A stretch of 64,000 nt of DNA from Chiayiivirga flava. Its GTDB lineage: Bacteria > Pseudomonadota > Gammaproteobacteria > Xanthomonadales > Xanthomonadaceae. The notes under the pieces are model-generated. The model had not been told where the DNA came from and made no database searches. It saw nothing but the letters and a program-made list of their open reading frames with translations. This document shows, one piece after another, positions 32,335 through 44,752 of the stretch. Where the stretch lies: assembly GCA_037190825.1 (NCBI GenBank), contig JBBCJS010000003.1, positions 1 through 64,000 on the forward strand. Direction: 5' to 3'. Positions within the stretch are counted from its first letter, which is position 1; the number at the start of each line of letters is the position of its first letter. Both the position numbers and the translations under genes were made by a program.

Positions 32335-34953
32335 TCAGACCATCTTCTTGAGTCGATACAGCAGATCGTGCGCCTCGCGCGGACTCACTGCATCCGGATC
32401 GAGGCCGCGCAGGGTTTCTTCCACGGGCGAGGGCATCGGCGGGGCGAACAGGCCCATCTGCGGCGATGCGGGTGTGGCTGCCGCGGTGGCTGCTGGTGCA
32501 GGTATGTCGAGGCTCGCGGCCATGCCGGATTCGAGGTGGTGCAGCGTCGCGCGCGCCTGCGCGATGACCGGCTTGGGCAGGCCGGCGAGGGCGGCGACTT
32601 GCAGGCCGAAGCTGCGGTTGGCCGGGCCGTCCTTCACCGCGTGCATGAACACCAGGGCGTCGCCATGCTCGACGGCATCCAGGTGCACGTTGGCGATGCC
32701 GCTGGGGTGGCCGTCGGCATTCGCGTCCGCGAGGGTGGTCAACTCGAAGTAGTGGGTGGCGAACAGGGTGAAGGCGCGGTTGGCGTGCGCCAGATGCCGG
32801 GCGCAGGCTTCGGCCAGCGCGAGGCCGTCGTAGGTGGAGGTGCCGCGGCCGATCTCGTCCATCAGCACGAGGGAGCGGTCGGTGGCGTGGTGCAGGATGT
32901 AGCTGGTTTCGCTCATTTCGACCATGAAGGTCGATTGACCTTTGGCCAGGTCATCGCCGGCGCCGATGCGGGTCAGGATGCGGTCGATAGGGCCGATCCG
33001 CGCGCGCGTGGCGGGCACGAAGCTGCCAATGTGGGCGAGCAGCACGATCAGCGCGTTCTGGCGCATGTAGGTGCTCTTGCCGCCCATGTTCGGGCCGGTG
33101 ATGACGAGCATGCGGCGCTCGGGCGTGAGGTGCAGGTCGTTCGGCTCGAAGGGCTCGTCGCGCACCGCTTCCACTACAGGATGGCGGCCGCGTTCGATGG
33201 CGATGCCGGGCGTTTCGGTGAGTTCCGGGCATGACCAGTCCAGCGCCAGCGCGCGTTCGGAAAAGCAGCACAGCACGTCCAGTTCGCTCAACGCGGCGGC
33301 GCAGCGCTTGAGCGGCTCCAGTTCGACGTTGAGCGCGTCGAGCAGTTCCTCGTACAGCAGTTTCTCGCGCGCCAGGGCGCGTTCGCGGGCGCTGAGGACC
33401 TTGTCCTCGAAGGCCTTGAGTTCCTCGGTGATGTAGCGCTCCGCGCCGGTGAGGGTCTGGCGGCGGGTGTAGTGCACCGGCGCCTTGTCGGCCTGGCCCT
33501 TGCTGATCTCGATGAAGTAGCCGTGCACGCGGTTGTAGCCGACCTTCAGCGTCGGGATGCCGCTGGCGGCGCGTTCGCGCGCTTCCAGGTCGATCAGGAA
33601 CTGGTCGGCGTTGGTGGCCAGTTGCCGCAGTTCGTCCAGTTGCGCATCGAAGCCATCGGCGATGACGCCGCCGTCGCGCAGCAGCAGCGGTGGCTGCGGC
33701 ATCACGGCGCGGGCGAGCAGTTCGGCGTTGGCCGTGTGTTCGCCCAGTTGCGCGGCGAGGGTGGAAAGGCGCGGGGAATCCAGCGGCGCAAGCTCGGCGC
33801 GGATCGCCGGCAGCGCGCCCAGGCCATCGCGCAGGGTGGACAGATCGCGCGGGCGGGCCGAGCGCAGCGCGACGCGGGCGAGGATGCGTTCCAGGTCGCC
33901 GAGGGCGCGGAAGCGCTCGCGCAGCGGCTCGAAGCGGCGGGTGTCGAGCAGGGTCTGCACGGCGTGATGGCGTTCGCGCAAGACGTGCTGATCGCGCAGC
34001 GGGCGGTGCAGCCAGCGCCGCAGCAGGCGGCCGCCCATCGGCGTGATGGTGCTGTCCACCACGCCGAGCAGGGTGTGGCGGGCGTTGCCGTCCACGCGCG
34101 AATCCAGTTCCAGGTGGCGGCGCGTGGCGGCGTTCATCGCGATGCCGTCGTCGGCCGATTCGAACGCGATGGAGGATAGATGCGGCAGGCGCTGTTTCTG
34201 GGTTTCTTCGACGTAGGCCAGCAGCGCGCCGGCAGCGGCGGTGGCCAGCGCACGTTGTTCCAGCCCGAAGCCGGAAAGATCGTGCAGATTGAAGAAGCGC
34301 AGCAACTGGCGGCGGCAGGCGTCGGCATCGAACAGCCATGGCGCGCGGCGGCGCACGCCGGCACGGGTGGCCAGCGTCTCGGGCAAGCCTTCTTCGTCCG
34401 GCAGCAGCAGTTCGGCCGGCTCCAGTCGCGCCAGTTCGGCCGCGAGCGCGTCCTCGGTTTCCACTTCGTTGACGAGGAAGCGCCCGGAGGAAAGATCGGC
34501 CCAGGCCAGGCCATAGCCGTTCCTGCCGCGCGCGACCGCCATCAACAATGTGTCGCGGCGTTCCTGCAACAGGGCTTCGTCGGTGACGGTGCCGGGCGTG
34601 ACGACGCGGACGACCTTGCGTTCCACCAGTCCTTTCGCCAGTGCCGGATCGCCGATCTGCTCGCAGATCGCCACCGATTCGCCCAGCGCCACCAGCCGCG
34701 CCAGGTAGCCTTCGTACGAATGCGCCGGCACGCCGGCCATCGGGATCGGCGCGCCGCCGGAACTGCCGCGCTGGGTCAGGGTGATGTCGAGAAGCTTCGC
34801 CGCCCGGCGCGCATCGTCGTAGAACAGTTCGTAGAAATCGCCCATCCGGAAGAACACCAGGATGTCCGGGTGCTCGGCCTTGGCCGCGAAATACTGCTTC
34901 ATCAGCGGCGTGTGCTCGGGCGTCTTGTCCTTCGGGAGTGCGGGAGGGGTCAT
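32335..34953 (-). CDS. mutS: DNA mismatch repair protein MutS
   Basis: N-terminus [34 protein letters not shown]; Walker [14 protein letters not shown]; C-terminal domain; start refined to 34953 (M108 of the track ORF). Confidence 0.95.
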
Positions 34954-35191
34954 CGGGTGCGGTGCGCGAACGGGCGGAGCGGGCCGGGAATGGTACAGGA
35001 GCCGGTCGCGCGGGCCGGGCAGGGGCATCGGTCGTGTCGACGGTGTGTCGGCGTACGTGGGTCGTGGGACGGGCGGGAGAGGGGTGTCGACTGGCTCCGA
35101 TCCGAGCAGGTGGTTATGGCACGATGACGGAGGCGGCTGGCCGGGAGGAAGGGAAGAGGAATGGCCGGGAGTTTGATGGGAAGGAAGCCCG

Positions 35192-36388
35192 ATGGCACGG
35201 CATGAGTTCTCCGCCGCCGTACGTCGGCAGATTGCCGAGCGTGCAGGGCACCAGTGCAGTTTTCCGGCGTGCAATCGCCGTACCGTGGGCGGCAGCGCGG
35301 ACGGCCGGCATGTTTCTCGGAGTGGGTACGCTGCCCACGTTTACTCCGCTTCTTCCAACGGCCCCCGTGGCCAGGGTGGTTTGTCGCCCGAGGAACTGCG
35401 CAGTGCGGACAACGGGATTTGGTTGTGCGGCGTGCACGCCAAGCTGGTGGACAACCATGAAGGGAGTGAGTATCCGCCGGAGGTGCTGCATAGCTACAAG
35501 GCTTTGCACGAGGCGCGCGTGGCGCTGGAGCACGAAGGGCTCTATCCGCCGGTAGGATGGCTGCACGAGTTCACGGTTGGGCAGAATCCGCTGTTCGTTC
35601 CGAATCAGCGTTTCCAGTTCGCCAAACTGAACCTGTTCTACGGGATGAACGGAACGGGTAAGACAGCGCTGACCGAATGGATCACCGGATTTTTCGACGC
35701 GACGCGATACTCCCGCTGGATGAAGAGTCGGGCGGTGCCTATCCAGGCGGCCATGTCGGTGCTCAATCCCAGGCTTCAGCGGCTGTCCGTGGTGGTGACG
35801 CAGAACGATGCCGCTTATGAGATCGACGGCATTCCGTGCGCCTTCGTCCCGCTGGGCTTCAACGTGATCCAACTGCGTCTCTTGCCGCTGGGCAGGGACC
35901 ATGTCGAGTGGCTGTCGCAGGTGCTGGGGCTGCCGAAAGCCGTCATCCGAGGGTTGGCGCAGGAGGTGGCCCGAGCTCCGGGCGCGCGGATCTCGAATCT
36001 GCGGTTCGAGCGCGATCCGGGCGATGACCAGAAGGAAGTGCTTCGCCTGGATGTGAAGGGAGCACATCCGGGGCTGATGCTGAATGGCCTGAGCGGTGGC
36101 GAGGAAGCCACGGTGGTGCTGGAGCTGGCGATCGCGGCCGCACGGCTTTCGGGCAGGTATTGCCCCACCTTGCTGGTTCTCGAGGGGCGCCCGGTGAACA
36201 TCCTGGGGAGCTTCTTCGAGAATTACTCACGTCATCTGCTCGATCCGGAAAACCAGTTCCAGACGCTGATGAGCCTGCCGGAGCGGGACATGAATCTTGG
36301 CGAGGTGCGCTGGAATGGATGGCAGGTCATCCATACTCAGGGCCAGCGCCCTGGATTGCGGTTCACTCAAAACGCTGCCGGATACTGA
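35192..36388 (+). CDS. HNH-endonuclease / ABC-type (AAA_21-like) ATPase fusion protein; candidate single-gene antiphage defence
   Basis: N-terminal HNH ([11 protein letters not shown] ... [15 protein letters not shown]); central P-loop [18 protein letters not shown]; ABC-signature-like [14 protein letters not shown] and Walker-B-like TLLVLEG; about 63% GC and relaxed third-position bias compared with neighbours; divergent from mutS. Confidence 0.8.
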
Positions 36389-36411
36389 TCGCCGTCGGCG
36401 GGCCGGCATCG

Positions 36412-37284
36412 CTAGCCAGTGCCGGCAGAGGAACCGAAAGTCTTCAGCCAATAACCCACGCCGCTACCGGAGATGCCGGCGCCCCACAGCGCAATGGCCT
36501 CGCTGAGTTCGGGTATCAGCACGAGGACGATGCCGAGAACGAACGCAAAGAAAGCGAACAATGGCTCCAGGCGTGCACGCAGTTGACCAGCGAACGTGCT
36601 CGGCCGGCTGTTCCAGTGCTTGAGCAGCAGCAGGATGTAGGTGGCGAGGAATACAACCACGCACAGCGTGAGCAGACCCAGGAACAGGACGCTCCAGATC
36701 CGACTGGGTGCGGGCTTCTGTTCGGCGGGCGGGGATTGAGCAGAGGCGATTGCAGCCTCCAGTTCCCTTATTTTCTCGGCAAGATCGGCAGTCAGGCGAG
36801 CTGTGCGCAAGCTTGGTTCCGCTACGGTGGCCTCTCCGATTTCGAAGGTCGCCGAGGTCAGCAGAGTCACGAACTCGGTGTTGATCTCCTTATTGGCGCT
36901 GGTTCTCAGATGCTCGGTGGCCTTCACCAGTTTGTCGATCGCACGCTCCAGGTGGCGCTTGGCCTCTGGGGTTTCTGCGCTGGCCAGGGTTTCGGCCAGC
37001 GCGATCCGCATCTGTACCAGATCGGCGGCGTGTACGGCGACACGGCTCTTGACGTTGTAGTCCTGGTAGCTGGGAAGTGCGATCGCCGCGAGAATGGCGA
37101 CGACGGCGATCGGAATGGCGACCTTGATCCAGGACAGGCCGCCGCGTCGTGGCTTGCCGGTGCCATTCGTCTGGCCGTCACTGGAAGACGCCCGTCGTTG
37201 TTCGGCGGATCGCCAGGGTTGGCGCGAAAGCAGCCACATGCAGGCCAGCGTGGCGAGTCCGAGAACGAATGCCCATGCGTTCAT
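36412..37284 (-). CDS. Membrane protein with an internal degenerate type-IV-pilin-like N-terminal helix
   Basis: 290 aa from MNAWAF (ATG ~37284 with a GGGGA RBS); predicted TM1; then GGLSWIKVAIPIAVVAILAAIALPSYQDY aligns to the pilin consensus [28 protein letters not shown] (E5 replaced by K); helical middle region and two C-terminal TM helices. Confidence 0.6.
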   Translation of the reverse strand: MNAWAFVLGLATLACMWLLSRQPWRSAEQRRASSSDGQTNGTGKPRRGGLSWIKVAIPIAVVAILAAIALPSYQDYNVKSRVAVHAADLVQMRIALAETLASAETPEAKRHLERAIDKLVKATEHLRTSANKEINTEFVTLLTSATFEIGEATVAEPSLRTARLTADLAEKIRELEAAIASAQSPPAEQKPAPSRIWSVLFLGLLTLCVVVFLATYILLLLKHWNSRPSTFAGQLRARLEPLFAFFAFVLGIVLVLIPELSEAIALWGAGISGSGVGYWLKTFGSSAGTG

Positions 37285-37595
37285 ATGATCCCCTTGTGCA
37301 GCGTACGCAACCGGCAGGCGGAAGGCGAGGTCGGCAATCTTTTGCTGCCGCTGTGGGCCTGTCAATAGAAGGCGCTCGTCGCCAGAGCGACGCCGTTCTT
37401 CCGGAGTGTCCTTAGGTCACGGCGCCGCATGGGCCTTCCGCAGAGCCATGCGAACATCTCCAAGGCGACTCCCCCCATGTGTGCCGTGTTCACGGCCGAC
37501 TTCGCTCTCTTCGCCAGGATGGAGCAGGGGATGGACATCAGCGCCAGGTGCATGAGCCGCGCGGGCCGGCCGGTCGCGTACCCGGCGCCGCTGGG

Positions 37596-38270
37596 TCAGG
37601 AGCCGTCGCCGGGGCGCTCCGGCGCGTCGCCGTAGTACAGCACGCCGAGCCTGATCTTCTCCCGGCCCTGCGCGCGGCGGTGGCGGTTGGTGTCGCGCAG
37701 GGAGTAGAGGCAGCCGCAGTATTCCTGCTGGTAGAAGTGTTCGCGCTTGGAGATTTCGATCATGCGCTGGCTGCCACCGCCCTTGCGCCAGTTGTAGTCC
37801 CAGTAGACGAGGTTGTCGTAGGGCGCGGCGGCGCGATGGCCGCAGTCGTTGATCTGCTCCATGTTCTTCCAGCGCGAGATGCCCAGCGAGCTGGTGATGA
37901 CCGGGAAGCCGTGCTCGTGCGCGTAGAGCGCGGTGCGTTCGAAGCGCATGTCGAAGCACATGGTGCAGCGGATGCCGCGCTCGGGTTCGTTTTCCATGCC
38001 CTTGGCGCGGGCGAACCAGTTGTCGGTGTCGTAGTCGGCGTCGATGAACGGCACGCCGTGCTTCTGCGCGAAGCGGATGTTCTCCTCCTTGCGCAGTTCG
38101 TATTCCTTCACCGGGTGGATGTTGGGGTTGTAGAAGAAGATGGTGTAGTCGATGCCCGATTCGACGAACGCCTCCATCAGCTCGCCCGAGCAGGGAGCGC
38201 AGCAGGAATGCATGAGCAGGCGGTCGCCTTGGGGAAGCTGCAGGCGGGGACGGGAACTGTGGGTGGTCAT
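37596..38270 (-). CDS. queH: Epoxyqueuosine reductase QueH (DUF208)
   Basis: [12 protein letters not shown] cysteine motif plus conserved [13 protein letters not shown] and EYCGCLYS blocks. Confidence 0.85.
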
Positions 38271-38305
38271 GTGTGGTTCCGAAGGTCACGGGTGGACGGG
38301 GCCGA

Positions 38306-39957: not shown

Positions 39958-40010
39958 TGATGCTGCTGCAAGCGTTGGGCGCGGTGCGCGGCCTGGGCCG
40001 GGTGCGGAGC
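39958..40010 (+). pseudogene. Orphan duplicated 5' fragment of the ubiB-family kinase gene ([16 protein letters not shown]...)
   Basis: 39961-40007 matches 40811-40857 (ttgggcgcggtgcgcg and ctgggccgggtgc blocks identical); it encodes the same MLL(E/Q)ALGAVR(D/G)LGRV start as the intact gene 850 bp downstream. Confidence 0.5.
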
Positions 40011-40045
40011 CGTCCCCCGATCGACGCGTCGGCGGCCCGGCGCGC

Positions 40046-40738
40046 ATGAGCCGGCACGCGACCGCGACCGACCCCTTCCCGGGCTGGGACGGCAGCATCG
40101 CCGGCGCGCGCGCGTTGCAGGCGGAACTGGCGGCACGGGTCCGGCTGGAGGACGGCTTCGTCGCGCCGCTGCGCACGGTGGCCGGCTTCGATGTCGGCTT
40201 CGAGGACGGGGGCGGGACCACGCGCGCGGCGGTGGTGTTGCTGGACGCCGATTCGATGCAGCCGCTCGAATCGCATGTCGCCAGGGTGCCGACCGCGATG
40301 CCCTACGTCCCCGGCCTGCTCAGCTTCCGCGAACTGCCGGCGCTGCTGCGGGCGCTGGCGATGCTCTCGCGCACGCCGGATCTGGCGATGATCGACGGCC
40401 AGGGCATCGCGCATCCGCGCCGGCTCGGCATCGCCGCGCATTTCGGCGTGGCCACGGACCTGCCGGCCGTGGGCGTGGCCAAGAAGCTGCTGGCCGGCCG
40501 TTTCGCCGAACCTGGCCCCGTGCGCGGAGATCGCAGCCCGATCCTGCATCGCGGCGACACCGTCGGCTTCGCCCTGCGCAGCAAGCCGCGCTGCAATCCG
40601 CTGATCGTCTCGCCCGGGCATCGTGTCCGCCTGGACACGGCGGTGGCGCTGACCCTGCGCTTCCTGGGCGGCTACCGCCTGCCCGAGCCGACGCGCCTGG
40701 CCGACCGCCTGGCTTCGCGCCGCGACGAGCGGCGCTGA
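40046..40738 (+). CDS. nfi: Endonuclease V (deoxyinosine 3' endonuclease)
   Basis: 230 aa; [20 protein letters not shown] ... [27 protein letters not shown] conserved Nfi blocks; start fixed by arithmetic from the stop. Confidence 0.9.
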
Positions 40739-40810
40739 GGAAGCCCGGCCGACACCGGAAGTGGCCGTTCGCAAGTAAGCTTCCGGCAGGATGCTGGCGG
40801 AGGACGGGCG

Positions 40811-42493
40811 ATGTTGCTGGAAGCCTTGGGCGCGGTGCGCGATCTGGGCCGGGTGCAGGAAATCGCGGCGGTGCTGATCCGCTACGGGTTCGGCGACGTG
40901 GTGCAGCGCATCGGCATGGCCGGCGTGCTCGAACGCGCCGGCCGGGTGCTGCACTGGCATCCCGTGGGCGAGGAACTGCTGGCGCTCGCCCCGCCGCAGC
41001 GGGTGCGCCGCGCCCTGGAGGACCTGGGGCCGACCTTCGTCAAGCTCGGGCAGATCCTGGCCACGCGCGTGGACCTGTTCGGTCCCGAATGGATCGCCGA
41101 GTTCAGCCGCCTGCAGAACGCGGTGCCGGCGGTGCCTTTCGAGCGCATCGCCGTGCAGATCGAACAGGACCTGGGCCGCCCGCCGCGCGAGGCGTTCCGC
41201 AACCTGGAGGAAAAGCCGCTCGCCGCCGCCTCGCTCGGGCAGGCGTACCTGGCCGAACTGGACGATGGCACGAAGGTGGTGCTGAAGGTGCGCCGCCCCG
41301 ACATCGGGCCGACCATCGAGGCCGACCTGCGCCTGCTGAACCGCCTTGCCGAAGCCATCGAGAACGAGATGCCCGACTGGCGCCGCTACCGCCCGCGCGA
41401 CGTGGTGCGCCAGTTCGGCATCTCGCTGCGGCGCGAGCTGGATTTCGCCGCCGAGTGCCGCAGCGCCGAGCGCATCGCGCGCAATTTCGCCGGCCGCGCC
41501 GAGATCGTGGTGCCGCGCGTGCACTGGGATTACGTGAGCGAGCGGCTCAACGTGCAGGATTTCGTCGCGGGGATTCCCGGTTGCGCGATGGAGCGCCTGG
41601 ACGACGCCGGGCTGGATCGCGTGGAACTGGCGCGGCGCGGGGCGGCGGCGATCCTCAAGATGGTGCTGGAGGACGGCTTCTTCCACGCCGACCCGCATCC
41701 GGGCAACGTGTTCTTCCTGCCGGAAAACCGCATCGCGCTGATCGACTTCGGCATGGTCGGCCGGCTGAGCGTGGAGCGCCGCCAGCAGATCGCGCGCCTG
41801 CTGCACGGGCTGGCGACGCAGCAGGTGGAGGCGGTGTCGGACGTGCTGCTGGACTGGAGCGGCAATGCCGACATCGACGAGGCCCAGCTCCTCACCGAGA
41901 TCGACGCCTTCGTGGACAACTACCGCGGCGTGCCGCTCAAGCACCTGGGCTTCGGCCGCATGCTGACCGACATGATCGCGGTGATGCGCAACAACGGCCT
42001 GACGCTGCCGCCGGACCTGGCGCTGATGCTCAAGACCTTCGTCACGCTGGAAGGCATGGCGCGCGAGCTGGACCCGGACTTCGACATGGCCGCCGTGGCC
42101 GCGCCGTACCTGCGCCGCGCGCTGATCGAGCAGTATTCGCCGAAGGTGCTGGCGCGGCGCGGCTGGCACGTGCTCTCCAGCGCGATGGACCTGGTGTCCA
42201 GCCTGCCGCGCGACCTGCGCCAGATATTGCGCCTGGCGCGGCGCGGCAAGCTGCACGTGGAAGTGGAAGTCACCTCGCTCAAGCCCTTCGGCGACCAGCT
42301 CGACCGCGCCGTCAGCCGTCTCACCATCGGATTGGTCACTTCGGCGCTCATCATCGGCTCGGCCATCGTGATGAACATCAAGGGGCCGATTTCGCTGTCC
42401 AGCCTGTCGGGCTTCGGTGTGCTGGGTTTCATCGGCGCGGCGATCGGCGGGGTATGGGTGCTGGTGTCGATATTGCGAGGCGGGCGGCGGTGA
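40811..42493 (+). CDS. ubiB: UbiB/ABC1-family atypical protein kinase
   Basis: 560 aa; ABC1 kinase-like motifs ([34 protein letters not shown]); C-terminal TM helices. Confidence 0.9.
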
Positions 42494-42712: not shown

Positions 42713-44752
42713 TTGCGGGTGGGACAGGACAATCTGGCCGGTTATGCATTCGATGGTTATTTCCTGGACTTGCGCTCACGCCAGGTTGTGGGACCAGAGG
42801 GTGCATCGCTGACGTTGACAACCAAGGCGTTCGATACGCTGCTTTATCTGATCACGCGTCCAGGCGAAGTGGTTGGCAAGGAAGAGTTGCTGAAAGCTGT
42901 CTGGCCGGGGCGAGTGGTGGAAGACAACAACCTCACCCAGGCCATCTCGGCGCTGCGCCGGGCACTGGGCGTTGACGGCGGCGATCGACGGTACATCCTG
43001 ACTGTTTCCGGGCGCGGCTATCGCTTCGTTGCACCCGTGCGCAAGGTTTACCTGGAGGGTGGGGCACTTCCGGGCGGGGCAGATGCCGATGGCCAGGCCG
43101 TGACGGAGGAAATTGCACCTGCGCTGCCCGCGGCGGGGGCGCCTGGCCTCACGCTCGATCGGCTCGATAGACCAGCCAAGACCGTCAATCAGCGCTTTTC
43201 GCGCCAACGCGCAGCGAGCGCCCTGGCGTGGACCACGCTCGGCGCACTGTTGCTGGGCGCATTCACGTGGATGGGATACCGTGGATCGACCGCGCCCTTG
43301 GATATATCGGTCGCGCCCTTGTCACCCGAACCGGTTCCGGCAGCGCAGGCGTTGCCGGCCATCGCGGTGTTGCCGTTCCACATGCTGGGTAAGGCAGACT
43401 CCGATTCCATGATCGAAATCGGCCTGGCGGAAACGTTGATCGCGCGCCTGTCAGAGTCGCACCAATTGCATGTGCGCGCGATCGGCTCTGTCCTTCGCCA
43501 GGTCGAAGATACGCGCGATCCGGCCAATGTCGCCGAGGCGCTGGACGCGCAGTACGTCCTCAGTGGATCGGTGCAGGCGCGGCAGGACCGTGTGCGTGTC
43601 GTTGCGCAACTTTTTTCACGATCGCGCGATGCCGTGATATGGGGCGATACCTTCGATGCGCATGTCGATGCCGTGTTCACTTTGCAGGACGCCATAGCGC
43701 ACGCGGTATTGCAATCGTTGTCGATGACGTTGCCCGCGGGATCCGCATCGCACCGCAGTCCCTGCGATGGTGCCGACCCGATGGCGTATCGCGACTATCT
43801 GGCGGGGCAGCACCTGATGAGCGCGCCGATTCCCGATCGGCTGACGCGAGCCATAGGCGCATTTCGTGCCGCACTTGAACGCGATCCGACCTGTGCACGT
43901 GCCTGGGCCGGACAGGCATTTGCCTGGCGGGCCATGACCATTACGGGGGACATGGCGCCGCACGATGCCTTCCCGCTGGCCGAGGCTGCCGTCGCGCATG
44001 CGCTCGCATTGGATCCGGAACTGGCAGAAGCCCATGCCGCACGGGGTTTCAACCGATTCTGGTACGACTGGGACTGGGCTCAGGCCGAACAGGCCACGCG
44101 TCAGGCAATGGCTGCAGGTCCCAGTTGCGTGGATGCGCATTTTGCTCACGCCCATCTGATGAGCAACCTTGGACGTACAGCGGAAGCGTTGCAGGCAATG
44201 GAAATCGTGCGGCAACTGGATCCACTCTCCCCGCTGATCAACGCCATCCATGGGCAGATATTGGCGGCCGCGGGTGAGGAAGAAGCCGCTGCGCATCAGA
44301 TCGACATCACGCTGCGACTCGCCCCGGATTTCTGGATTGGCCTCTTGATGCGCGGCAGTCTGGCCTTGCAGCAGGGCGACACCCAGGGGGCGATTGTCGA
44401 TCTGGAAAACGCTGCAGAGCGTTCCCAGCGTGCCAGTCTGGTTCTGGCAACGCTGGGTATGGCGTACGCCCGCAACGGACAGCCCGAGCGGGCCCAGACG
44501 CTGCTGGATGAATTGGAACTGCGTTCAAACCATGGCTATGTCCCGCCGACGAGTCTGGCTGCGATCCATTTGGCGTTAGGCCGCACCGAGCAGGCACTTC
44601 AGCTGCTGGAAGACGCGTACCAGGCACGTGACCTGCGCATGACATTCCTCCGCGTGGACATGCGCTGGAACCCAATCCGAAGGGAGCCGCGCTTCATCGC
44701 GTTGGGGCAGCAGATGGGGTTAACACAAACGGAACCCGCGACAGGACTTTGA
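42713..44752 (+). CDS. CadC-like winged-helix (OmpR/PhoB-type) transcriptional regulator with a TM segment and C-terminal TPR repeats
   Basis: N-terminal YAFDGYFLDLRSRQV...GRGYRF DNA-binding domain; a hydrophobic segment near residue 165; TPR-like C-terminus; the track start at 42713 is TTG (GTG at 42719 is an alternative). Confidence 0.8.
   Translation: MRVGQDNLAGYAFDGYFLDLRSRQVVGPEGASLTLTTKAFDTLLYLITRPGEVVGKEELLKAVWPGRVVEDNNLTQAISALRRALGVDGGDRRYILTVSGRGYRFVAPVRKVYLEGGALPGGADADGQAVTEEIAPALPAAGAPGLTLDRLDRPAKTVNQRFSRQRAASALAWTTLGALLLGAFTWMGYRGSTAPLDISVAPLSPEPVPAAQALPAIAVLPFHMLGKADSDSMIEIGLAETLIARLSESHQLHVRAIGSVLRQVEDTRDPANVAEALDAQYVLSGSVQARQDRVRVVAQLFSRSRDAVIWGDTFDAHVDAVFTLQDAIAHAVLQSLSMTLPAGSASHRSPCDGADPMAYRDYLAGQHLMSAPIPDRLTRAIGAFRAALERDPTCARAWAGQAFAWRAMTITGDMAPHDAFPLAEAAVAHALALDPELAEAHAARGFNRFWYDWDWAQAEQATRQAMAAGPSCVDAHFAHAHLMSNLGRTAEALQAMEIVRQLDPLSPLINAIHGQILAAAGEEEAAAHQIDITLRLAPDFWIGLLMRGSLALQQGDTQGAIVDLENAAERSQRASLVLATLGMAYARNGQPERAQTLLDELELRSNHGYVPPTSLAAIHLALGRTEQALQLLEDAYQARDLRMTFLRVDMRWNPIRREPRFIALGQQMGLTQTEPATGL

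Follow-up and report, generated by a model that had tools for sequence, protein, structure and literature searches.

An HNH nuclease fused to an SMC/RecF-type ABC ATPase head represents an unnamed family, probably a new one-gene phage-defence system

A 64,000-nt stretch of Chiayiivirga flava DNA (contig JBBCJS010000003.1, positions 1 to 64,000; hereafter the window) carries at 35192..36388 (+) a gene for a 398-aa protein that joins an HNH nuclease to an ABC-type ATPase, here called HNH-ABC. Judged from domain profiles, residue conservation and the distribution of its relatives, HNH-ABC belongs to an unnamed family that is probably a new one-gene phage-defence system. The interpretation that we favour, with a probability of roughly 60%, is that of a nuclease that works alone, as a single polypeptide, against phages (or mobile DNA) and is licensed through ATP-dependent oligomerisation. 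The evidence comes from each of the two domains, from their conservation as one polypeptide, and from the loci into which the gene has moved.

The HNH-ABC open reading frame begins with ATG, ends with TGA after 398 codons, and is preceded by an AGGAAG-like ribosome-binding site 4-10 nt 5' of the start; an identical protein (P0001) is present in public data. An earlier reading of this DNA from its letters (the sequence-only reading) had described a 398-aa frame with an HNH motif, Walker A, ABC signature and Walker B, and all four motifs are present in the frame, with the CSFPAC-containing HNH motif in its N-terminal part. Its estimate of ~63% guanine-plus-cytosine (GC) content holds for the gene (62.6%); the ~70% that it gave for the background does not, as the whole window has 67.2%. 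It also noted a weaker codon bias; the GC content at third codon positions (GC3) is 75.4%, against 0.87-0.93 in the native neighbours mutS, TerC, ubiB and nfi.

Profile matches and alignments place the N-terminal domain (residues 1-115; 35192..35536, +), which includes an N-terminal helix at residues 8-17, as a Cap5-type HNH (His-Me finger) DNA endonuclease, with its predicted catalytic and zinc-binding residues all intact. PADLOC profiles matching residues 1-112 include PDC-M68A (7e-23) and the CBASS Effector/Endonuclease and SAVED_HNH models (1e-22 to 1e-9), and the HNH-bearing SduA (Shedu) model matches the same domain at 7e-10. A family profile built from 47 members was compared with the PDB, where residues 7-116 match 9om4 (2e-17), 8ysq (1e-14) and Cap5 (7rwk, 3e-13); 9om4 is the SPARHA HNH-APAZ effector (PMC12738770). 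The PtuB model is absent among the 15 PADLOC families that match the HNH domain. Pfam, run on the full protein, did not detect the HNH domain. The sequence-only reading had proposed a check by profile search, in which failure to find a domain would count against it; PADLOC and PDB profiles find the HNH domain and Pfam HNH models do not, and because Pfam alone misses it, such a failure would have been declared wrongly. The same blind spot bears on annotation: family proteins, where named, are called ‘hypothetical’ or ‘AAA family ATPase’, with an HNH domain unseen by Pfam models.

Residue conservation was counted in 219 full-length family members. H49, P58, R59, N74, C79 and D87 are conserved in 100% of them, C22 and C27 are kept in all but one non-gapped sequence, and position 82 carries His in 209 members and Cys in the other 10. 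His49 (35336..35338, +) is the putative catalytic general base of the HNH motif and aligns with the AHI His of Cap5 and SPARHA. The segment N74...C79..H82....D87 (35411..35452, +) belongs to the beta-beta-alpha-metal core, for which the AlphaFold2 model described below has strands at 45-49 and 75-79 and a helix at 80-88. From the alignment with Cap5 and SPARHA, C22, C27, C79 and H82 likely form a CCCH zinc site. A catalytic His, the Asn, a metal-binding residue, a Cys/His zinc site and a profile match, the features by which Cap5-type HNH domains are recognised, are thus all found.

The characterised relatives give these residues a functional context. The HNH domains of Cap5 and SPARHA are latent, sequence-nonspecific double-stranded DNA nucleases that dimerise via the N-terminal helix and are switched on when sensor-driven oligomerisation joins two dimers into a composite active site (PMC12738770). 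SPARHA activity is lost in H53A, the equivalent of His49 here, and in N71A/H80A (PMC12738770).

The Cap5-type HNH N-domain also occurs without this ATPase. At 37-43% identity over residues 3-113, it is found in ‘lysogenic conversion’ proteins of P2-EC46 and of a Yersinia P2-like phage (records AJ512680.1 and OM140653.1), and in hypothetical proteins of many ~110-kb enterobacterial (E. coli) plasmids, e.g. NZ_CP024264.1. In these phage and plasmid proteins the domain is presumably fused to other sensor domains.

The C-terminal domain (residues 120-398; 35549..36385, +) is barely visible to sequence profiles. Pfam matches of the full protein to the P-loop of AAA_13 (19.9 bits vs a cut-off of 36), AAA_23 and AAA_15 all lie below threshold, as does an NCBIfam RecF P-loop match (16 bits vs a cut-off of 172), so that a curated cut-off is reached by none of the Pfam or NCBIfam matches. 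Over the C-terminal ~280 residues, the defence ATPase profiles of PADLOC match at the P-loop only, with E >= 1e-4. An AlphaFold2 monomer model was built from the family alignment (mean predicted local distance difference test score 85.5, predicted template-modelling score 0.79) and compared with known structures using Foldseek. The best matches are SMC heads (5h68, 6.5e-12), followed by Rad50, cohesin SMC1A and RecF; MukB and JetC are also among the closest structural relatives of the ATPase, and the viral fold library BFVD returned only generic viral ABC ATPases. An ABC fold, Walker A, signature and Walker B acidic residue are all found, and the model thus unambiguously points to an ABC head of the SMC/RecF/Rad50 type.

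This predicted head is a minimal one. The long coiled coil with hinge or zinc hook that marks SMC and Rad50 proper is absent: where the coiled coils of those proteins emerge, the model has beta-strands and a short helical pair at residues 237-261, and Walker A is separated from the signature by just ~140 residues.

The nucleotide-binding motifs are unevenly conserved. Walker A (GMNGTGKT, residues 151-158; 35642..35665, +), which coincides with the AAA_13, AAA_23 and AAA_15 P-loop matches, is nearly invariant (G151 in 213 of 219, G156 and K157 each in 217, T or S at 158 in 218). The signature-like LSGGE (residues 300-304; 36089..36103, +) lies in a stretch that aligns with the signature-Walker B region of Rad50 and SMC and is conserved at L in 175, S in 184, G in 132 and E in 181 of the 219. 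In Walker B (TLLVLE-G, residues 326-332; 36167..36187, +), position 331 is acidic in 212/219 (Asp in 192, Glu in 20) and is Glu in the window protein. The next position, 332, is the slot of the catalytic Glu and is filled by G in 69, A in 24, S in 23, E in 20 and D in 16 members; the catalytic Glu is absent in ~90% of the family, including the window protein. The sequence-only reading had called the Walker B sequence ‘hhhhEG’ non-canonical, and across the 219 members the pattern is indeed D or E followed by G, A or S. Gln357 (within FQT; 36260..36262, +) is invariant in all 218 non-gap sequences and, from its spacing after Walker B and from the modelled strand at 356-363, appears to occupy the position of the H-loop His. 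Neither of the residues expected of a hydrolysis-competent site, a catalytic Glu after Walker B and an H-loop His, is therefore found.

ABC heads dimerise with ATP sandwiched between the Walker A of one head and the signature of the other, and an ABC site that lacks the catalytic Glu behaves like the Glu-to-Gln (EQ) mutants used to trap engaged heads. Because the Walker A Lys is kept while the catalytic Glu and the H-loop His are missing, the family alignment suggests that ATP binding acts as a switch and not as a motor. Across the 219 members, the conservation pattern points to selection on the nuclease and on the ATP-binding site alike.

The fusion is conserved as such. A word-indexed search returned 122 clusters (90% identity) that are 30-73% identical to the query, nearly all of them of 390-420 aa and with 96-100% query coverage, and an exhaustive hidden Markov model search of 1.84 billion representatives returned 579 clusters (50% identity) at E<=1e-30, the best 150 of which are mostly ~400-aa full-length matches, with some shorter fragments. 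The conserved unit is the fused HNH and ABC architecture in one polypeptide, kept in nearly all of the 122 clusters and in the best 150 of the 579, and the single-protein fusion recognised in the sequence-only reading is kept across the family. Hosts are scattered (Burkholderiaceae, Pseudomonas, Caballeronia, Thiobacillus, Opitutae, Nitrospinae), and distant copies lie on plasmids of Sphingomonas, Kitasatospora, Rhizobium and Priestia. A PADLOC comparison had been suggested as a check; in PADLOC v2 (2023) the HNH part is matched, and a full-length model for the fusion was not found. No description of an HNH-ABC fusion was found in the literature searched, the coverage of which did not extend to the 2020 ABC-ATPase survey of Krishnan et al. 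(Aravind laboratory), so a prior description is possible.

The genomic neighbourhoods of family members show that HNH-ABC travels as a one-gene cassette into variable or defence loci. The relative that is 73% identical stands after rpoD in an integrase-bounded island together with an nSTAND NTPase, an AAA_21+DUF4238 protein and other cargo, and nucleotide similarity between the window and that locus covers 35181-36347 only, i.e. the gene alone. A Pseudomonas island member has an integrase, DUF3987 and Lamassu (LmuB_C) nearby, and another member has a DDE transposase on one side and an AAA_15/21 pair on the other. A 54%-identical member (L007, 8001-9224) starts 34 bp 3' of jetD in the same orientation, like an extra gene at the end of the Wadjet jetABCD operon. 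Crude gene calls at 19 further metagenomic or viral loci gave 136 open reading frames, which include three type I hsdR genes, hsdS/hsdM, two PDC-S06 genes, integrases and Phd/ParE toxin-antitoxin pairs. Among these loci, one member comes directly after an hsdM-S-R operon (L113), one has an hsdR 3 kb away (L110), one is close to a DolB/PDC-M37B-like gene (L119) and one abuts PDC-S06 (L135).

Distant full-length members also occur on four IMG/VR contigs. The full-length member on one of these contigs (L094, 4345-5556, 29% identical) comes after the genes for baseplate J, a tail protein, the tail fibre and tail-fibre assembly in a P2-like prophage fragment, a position that in P2 belongs to the non-essential Z/fun accessory (moron) gene. 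The P2-hotspot literature searched makes no mention of HNH or of the tail-fibre position. No conserved partner gene was found among the family loci examined, and the view that the gene has no housekeeping partner is upheld: members have no conserved neighbour and often stand beside defence systems and mobile elements.

In the window itself, comparison with relatives indicates that the HNH-ABC gene is acquired and lies in a recently inserted stretch of DNA. Homology between the window and related contigs (L090, L092 and L093) in blastn ends at 35008 and restarts at 38303, which delimits a 3294-bp insertion (35009..38302) that holds HNH-ABC, TM290 and queH and separates the TerC stop from the region upstream of mutS. 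In L090, L092 and L190 (TerC 89-91% identical) and in Denitratimonas L093, the gene order is ubiB(-) TerC(+) mutS(+), and the TerC-mutS spacer of relatives without the insertion is just ~90 bp; TerC homologues place the host in the Lysobacteraceae, and the nearest named relative by TerC is Denitratimonas sp. CY0512 (88% identical). A fifth contig, L189 (TerC 91%), holds other cargo in the gap, namely a beta-lactamase-family gene, a LytTR response regulator and a His-kinase (L189:7512-10901). Since L189 carries unrelated cargo at this place and the others carry none, TerC|mutS is a variable site in this lineage. Three Logan metagenome contigs have the same islet at 98.5-100% identity.

These comparisons bear on several claims of the sequence-only reading. 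Acquired cargo is supported by the absence of the insertion from four related contigs and by its atypical GC3, and universal orthologues with native codon usage at the same position, which would have told against defence, are not seen, given the four contigs without the gene and its foreign GC3. The proposed presence/absence polymorphism is real, at TerC|mutS and not at the mutS-queH junction, queH lying inside the insertion. The divergent orientation of HNH-ABC and mutS is also as described. The longest mutS frame (32335..35274, -; 979 aa, TTG start) would overlap the 5' end of HNH-ABC by 83 nt on the opposite strand; sequence conservation with relatives, similarity to which stops at 35008, indicates that mutS probably begins at the ATG at 34953, which yields an 873-aa MutS starting 238 bp from HNH-ABC.

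For the trigger, oligomerisation, substrate and outcome of HNH-ABC, we infer the following scheme. The ABC head would serve as sensor and switch, and a trigger would permit two heads to sandwich ATP. Candidate triggers are a phage protein, as for PARIS and Gabija, or the ends or structures of foreign DNA, the latter by analogy with Lamassu (PMC12663957). Because hydrolysis is crippled, the engaged state of the heads would be long-lived. Head engagement would then bring together HNH domains already paired via their N-terminal helix, and the resulting dimer of dimers, an HNH tetramer, would create a composite active site, both steps as in Cap5 and SPARHA. Non-specific cleavage of double-stranded DNA would destroy phage DNA and/or kill the infected cell (abortive infection).

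Several observations weigh against this interpretation. The trigger, oligomeric state and ATP dependence are all features that we infer, and the AlphaFold2 model is a monomer. The window islet has no other recognisable defence gene, some members stand alone among metabolic genes (L009), and defence neighbours at ~9/24 loci with flanks are a raw count without a matched background. The window protein has Glu at Walker B, where most members have Asp and 9% of the family have Glu. With no full-length PADLOC v2 match, HNH-ABC cannot be assigned to a validated system.

The nearest competitor of the ATP-licensed suicide nuclease is a restriction-like direct action on foreign DNA, in which the head of a minimal SbcCD/Mre11-Rad50 analogue would hold DNA ends, or DNA that is unusual or modified, in an ATP-dependent clamp and present them to the HNH domain. 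The nearest ATPase structures (SMC, RecF, Rad50, MukB and JetC) are DNA-clamping heads, members adjoin type I restriction-modification and Wadjet genes, and HNH is a DNA nuclease. A DNA-binding or modification-reading domain was not detected, however, and the protein lacks the coiled coil and partner subunits of Rad50 and SMC; ~90% of members lack the catalytic Glu that clamp cycling would need, and the characterised Cap5-type HNH modules are indiscriminate suicide effectors (PMC12738770). We therefore regard restriction-like action as unlikely, at perhaps the level of a serious minority view.

Movement as a single gene could also be read as the mark of a selfish nuclease or addiction-type element, homing-endonuclease-like or toxin, that brings its host no defence benefit. 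Such an element would account for a cassette with homology confined to the gene, for intergenic insertion with no integrase nearby and for a patchy distribution, and HNH domains are frequent in homing endonucleases. The HNH subfamily is nonetheless of the Cap5/SPARHA/Shedu defence type and not a homing one, neither an intron or intein context nor a duplicated target is present, and no antitoxin-like partner is conserved. The ATP-binding domain, which a homing enzyme would not need, is under strong purifying selection, and members recur in defence islands and at the prophage moron position. Together these points make a selfish origin quite improbable.

A housekeeping DNA repair or recombination factor tied to mutS (RecF- or RecN-like, with a nuclease) is largely refuted and deserves very little credence: the divergent position beside mutS, the ATPase fold nearest RecF, SMC and Rad50 and the weak NCBIfam RecF match at the P-loop stand against absence from four related contigs in which mutS directly follows TerC, the lack of any other examined family member adjoining mutS, a foreign GC3, a sporadic phyletic distribution and a RecF score far short of its cut-off (16 bits vs 172).

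Within the reading of HNH-ABC as an ATP-licensed defence nuclease, a bolder and more tentative proposal is possible. The minimal SMC/RecF-type head, without coiled coil and hydrolytic residues, might be purely an ATP-gated dimerisation sensor that assembles a Cap5-type HNH, and HNH-ABC might be the founding example of an unnamed single-gene immune system. If so, this would be a third independent licensing of the same suicide effector, beside cyclic nucleotides with SAVED and Argonaute with APAZ, and immunity might be tied to the ATP state of the cell, or to the detection of foreign DNA by an SMC head on its own. The loss of Glu and His alongside a strict Walker A Lys offers a natural test of whether ATP binding without turnover can gate an immune nuclease, and the small head (~280 residues, with no coiled coil or partner subunits) is a tractable model for foreign-DNA recognition by SMC-like heads.

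The islet holds two further genes, TM290 and queH. TM290 (36412..37284, -; GC3 0.74; also called in L001-L003) encodes an orphan 290-aa membrane protein and is convergent with HNH-ABC, the two stop codons being 23 bp apart. It falls in a cluster of 2 sequences, and no Pfam or PADLOC family was found for it. The protein has an internal type-IV-pilin-like helix (AILAAIALPSYQDYNVKSRV) with an extra hydrophobic segment N-terminal to it, and two C-terminal hydrophobic stretches that resemble transmembrane helices. TM290 was considered as a partner or immunity gene and rejected, being an orphan that is absent beside every other family member checked. The queH gene for epoxyqueuosine reductase (37596..38270, -; Pfam QueH 5e-65; GC3 0.92) has relatives in 80 other genomes (75-93% identical) that are never near mutS, TerC, TM290 or HNH-ABC, and its DNA homology is limited to the coding sequence. 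Since HNH-ABC and TM290 have a foreign GC3 (0.75 and 0.74) and that of queH is native-like, the insertion was, these values suggest, built by at least two events.

The insertion separates mutS from TerC, its direct upstream neighbour in relatives. No transfer RNA gene was found in the window and no integrase or convincing att repeats at the islet, where promoter and terminator counts are at chance level and repeats are only short (<=27 nt) and imperfect. A 14-nt imperfect direct repeat at 34991-35004 (TGGTACAGGAGCCG) and 37592-37605 (TGGGTCAGGAGCCG) brackets HNH-ABC and TM290, the second copy overlapping the queH stop codon; this pair may be due to chance or to the micro-homology of a second insertion event.

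Further along the window, nfi (endonuclease V; 40124..40738, +) is a second small insertion relative to related contigs, within 39959-40856. In relatives, nfi is missing and a gap of ~100-170 bp separates TerC from the divergent ubiB; in the window, the copies of a 47-nt direct repeat lie on either side of nfi (39959-40005 and 40810-40856, 89% identical) and duplicate the ubiB 5' end. An OmpR-type winged-helix and TPR regulator gene at 42713..44752 (+) has the lowest GC3 of the genes examined (0.69), lies in a lower-GC stretch at 42.4-44 kb, and may be another acquired gene.

The pairing of an ABC ATPase with a nuclease is a recurrent defence design, seen in Septu, Gabija/OLD, PARIS, Lamassu and HEC-01 to HEC-04, and HNH-ABC, if confirmed, would join this group as a compact 1.2-kb one-gene system. 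The best PADLOC match, protein A of PDC-M68, is from a candidate system that is itself unvalidated; it aligns query residues 1-111 with positions 1-109 of a 253-position model, over the HNH domain, and PDC-M68 is a multi-gene candidate without a matching ATPase component, of which no mention was found in the literature searched. The OLD nucleases, GajA of Gabija, AriAB of PARIS and HEC-04 likewise fuse or pair an ABC ATPase with a nuclease in single- or two-gene defence. They have a C-terminal TOPRIM, an OLD-clade ATPase and a canonical Walker B DE, whereas HNH-ABC has an N-terminal HNH, an SMC/RecF-like head and degenerate hydrolysis motifs; TOPRIM was not detected in the protein, and the GajA and AriA models match at the P-loop only (E>0.01). 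Lamassu, with its SMC-like ATPase LmuB, its effector LmuA (often a Cap4 nuclease) and LmuC, resembles HNH-ABC in coupling an SMC-family head to a nuclease borrowed from among the CBASS effectors. HNH-ABC lacks the coiled coil of LmuB, agreement with the LmuB model is limited to the P-loop (E 3e-3), and LmuA and LmuC genes are not adjacent in the window.

The sequence-only reading had drawn a parallel with Septu, which stands as an analogy and fails as kinship, the HNH being of the Cap5/SPARHA type and the ATPase nearest to SMC, RecF and Rad50. Septu (PtuA and PtuB), like the PtuAB of retron Ec78/Eco7, consists of two proteins, whereas HNH-ABC is one, with the HNH N-terminal and of Cap5 type and the catalytic Glu missing. 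A fused Septu was considered and rejected: there is no match to PtuB, and PtuA models match residues ~141-162 (the P-loop) only, with E of 2e-3 to 1e-2, so that the marks of PtuAB are not found.

The closest comparison is with Cap5 (HNH-SAVED) and SPARHA (HNH-APAZ), which share the HNH effector and differ in the sensor: an ABC head takes the place of the cyclic-nucleotide-sensing SAVED domain or the Argonaute-binding APAZ domain. HNH-ABC has neither the SAVED domain nor the CD-NTase operon partner of a CBASS Cap5 effector, and no CD-NTase or prokaryotic Argonaute gene was found near it in the window, where its neighbours are mutS, TM290, queH and TerC. Its signal would be ATP-dependent head engagement, and not a second messenger or guide and target binding. 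If this is confirmed, the HNH effector of Cap5 and SPARHA would be a portable module, with the ABC head as its third kind of sensor.

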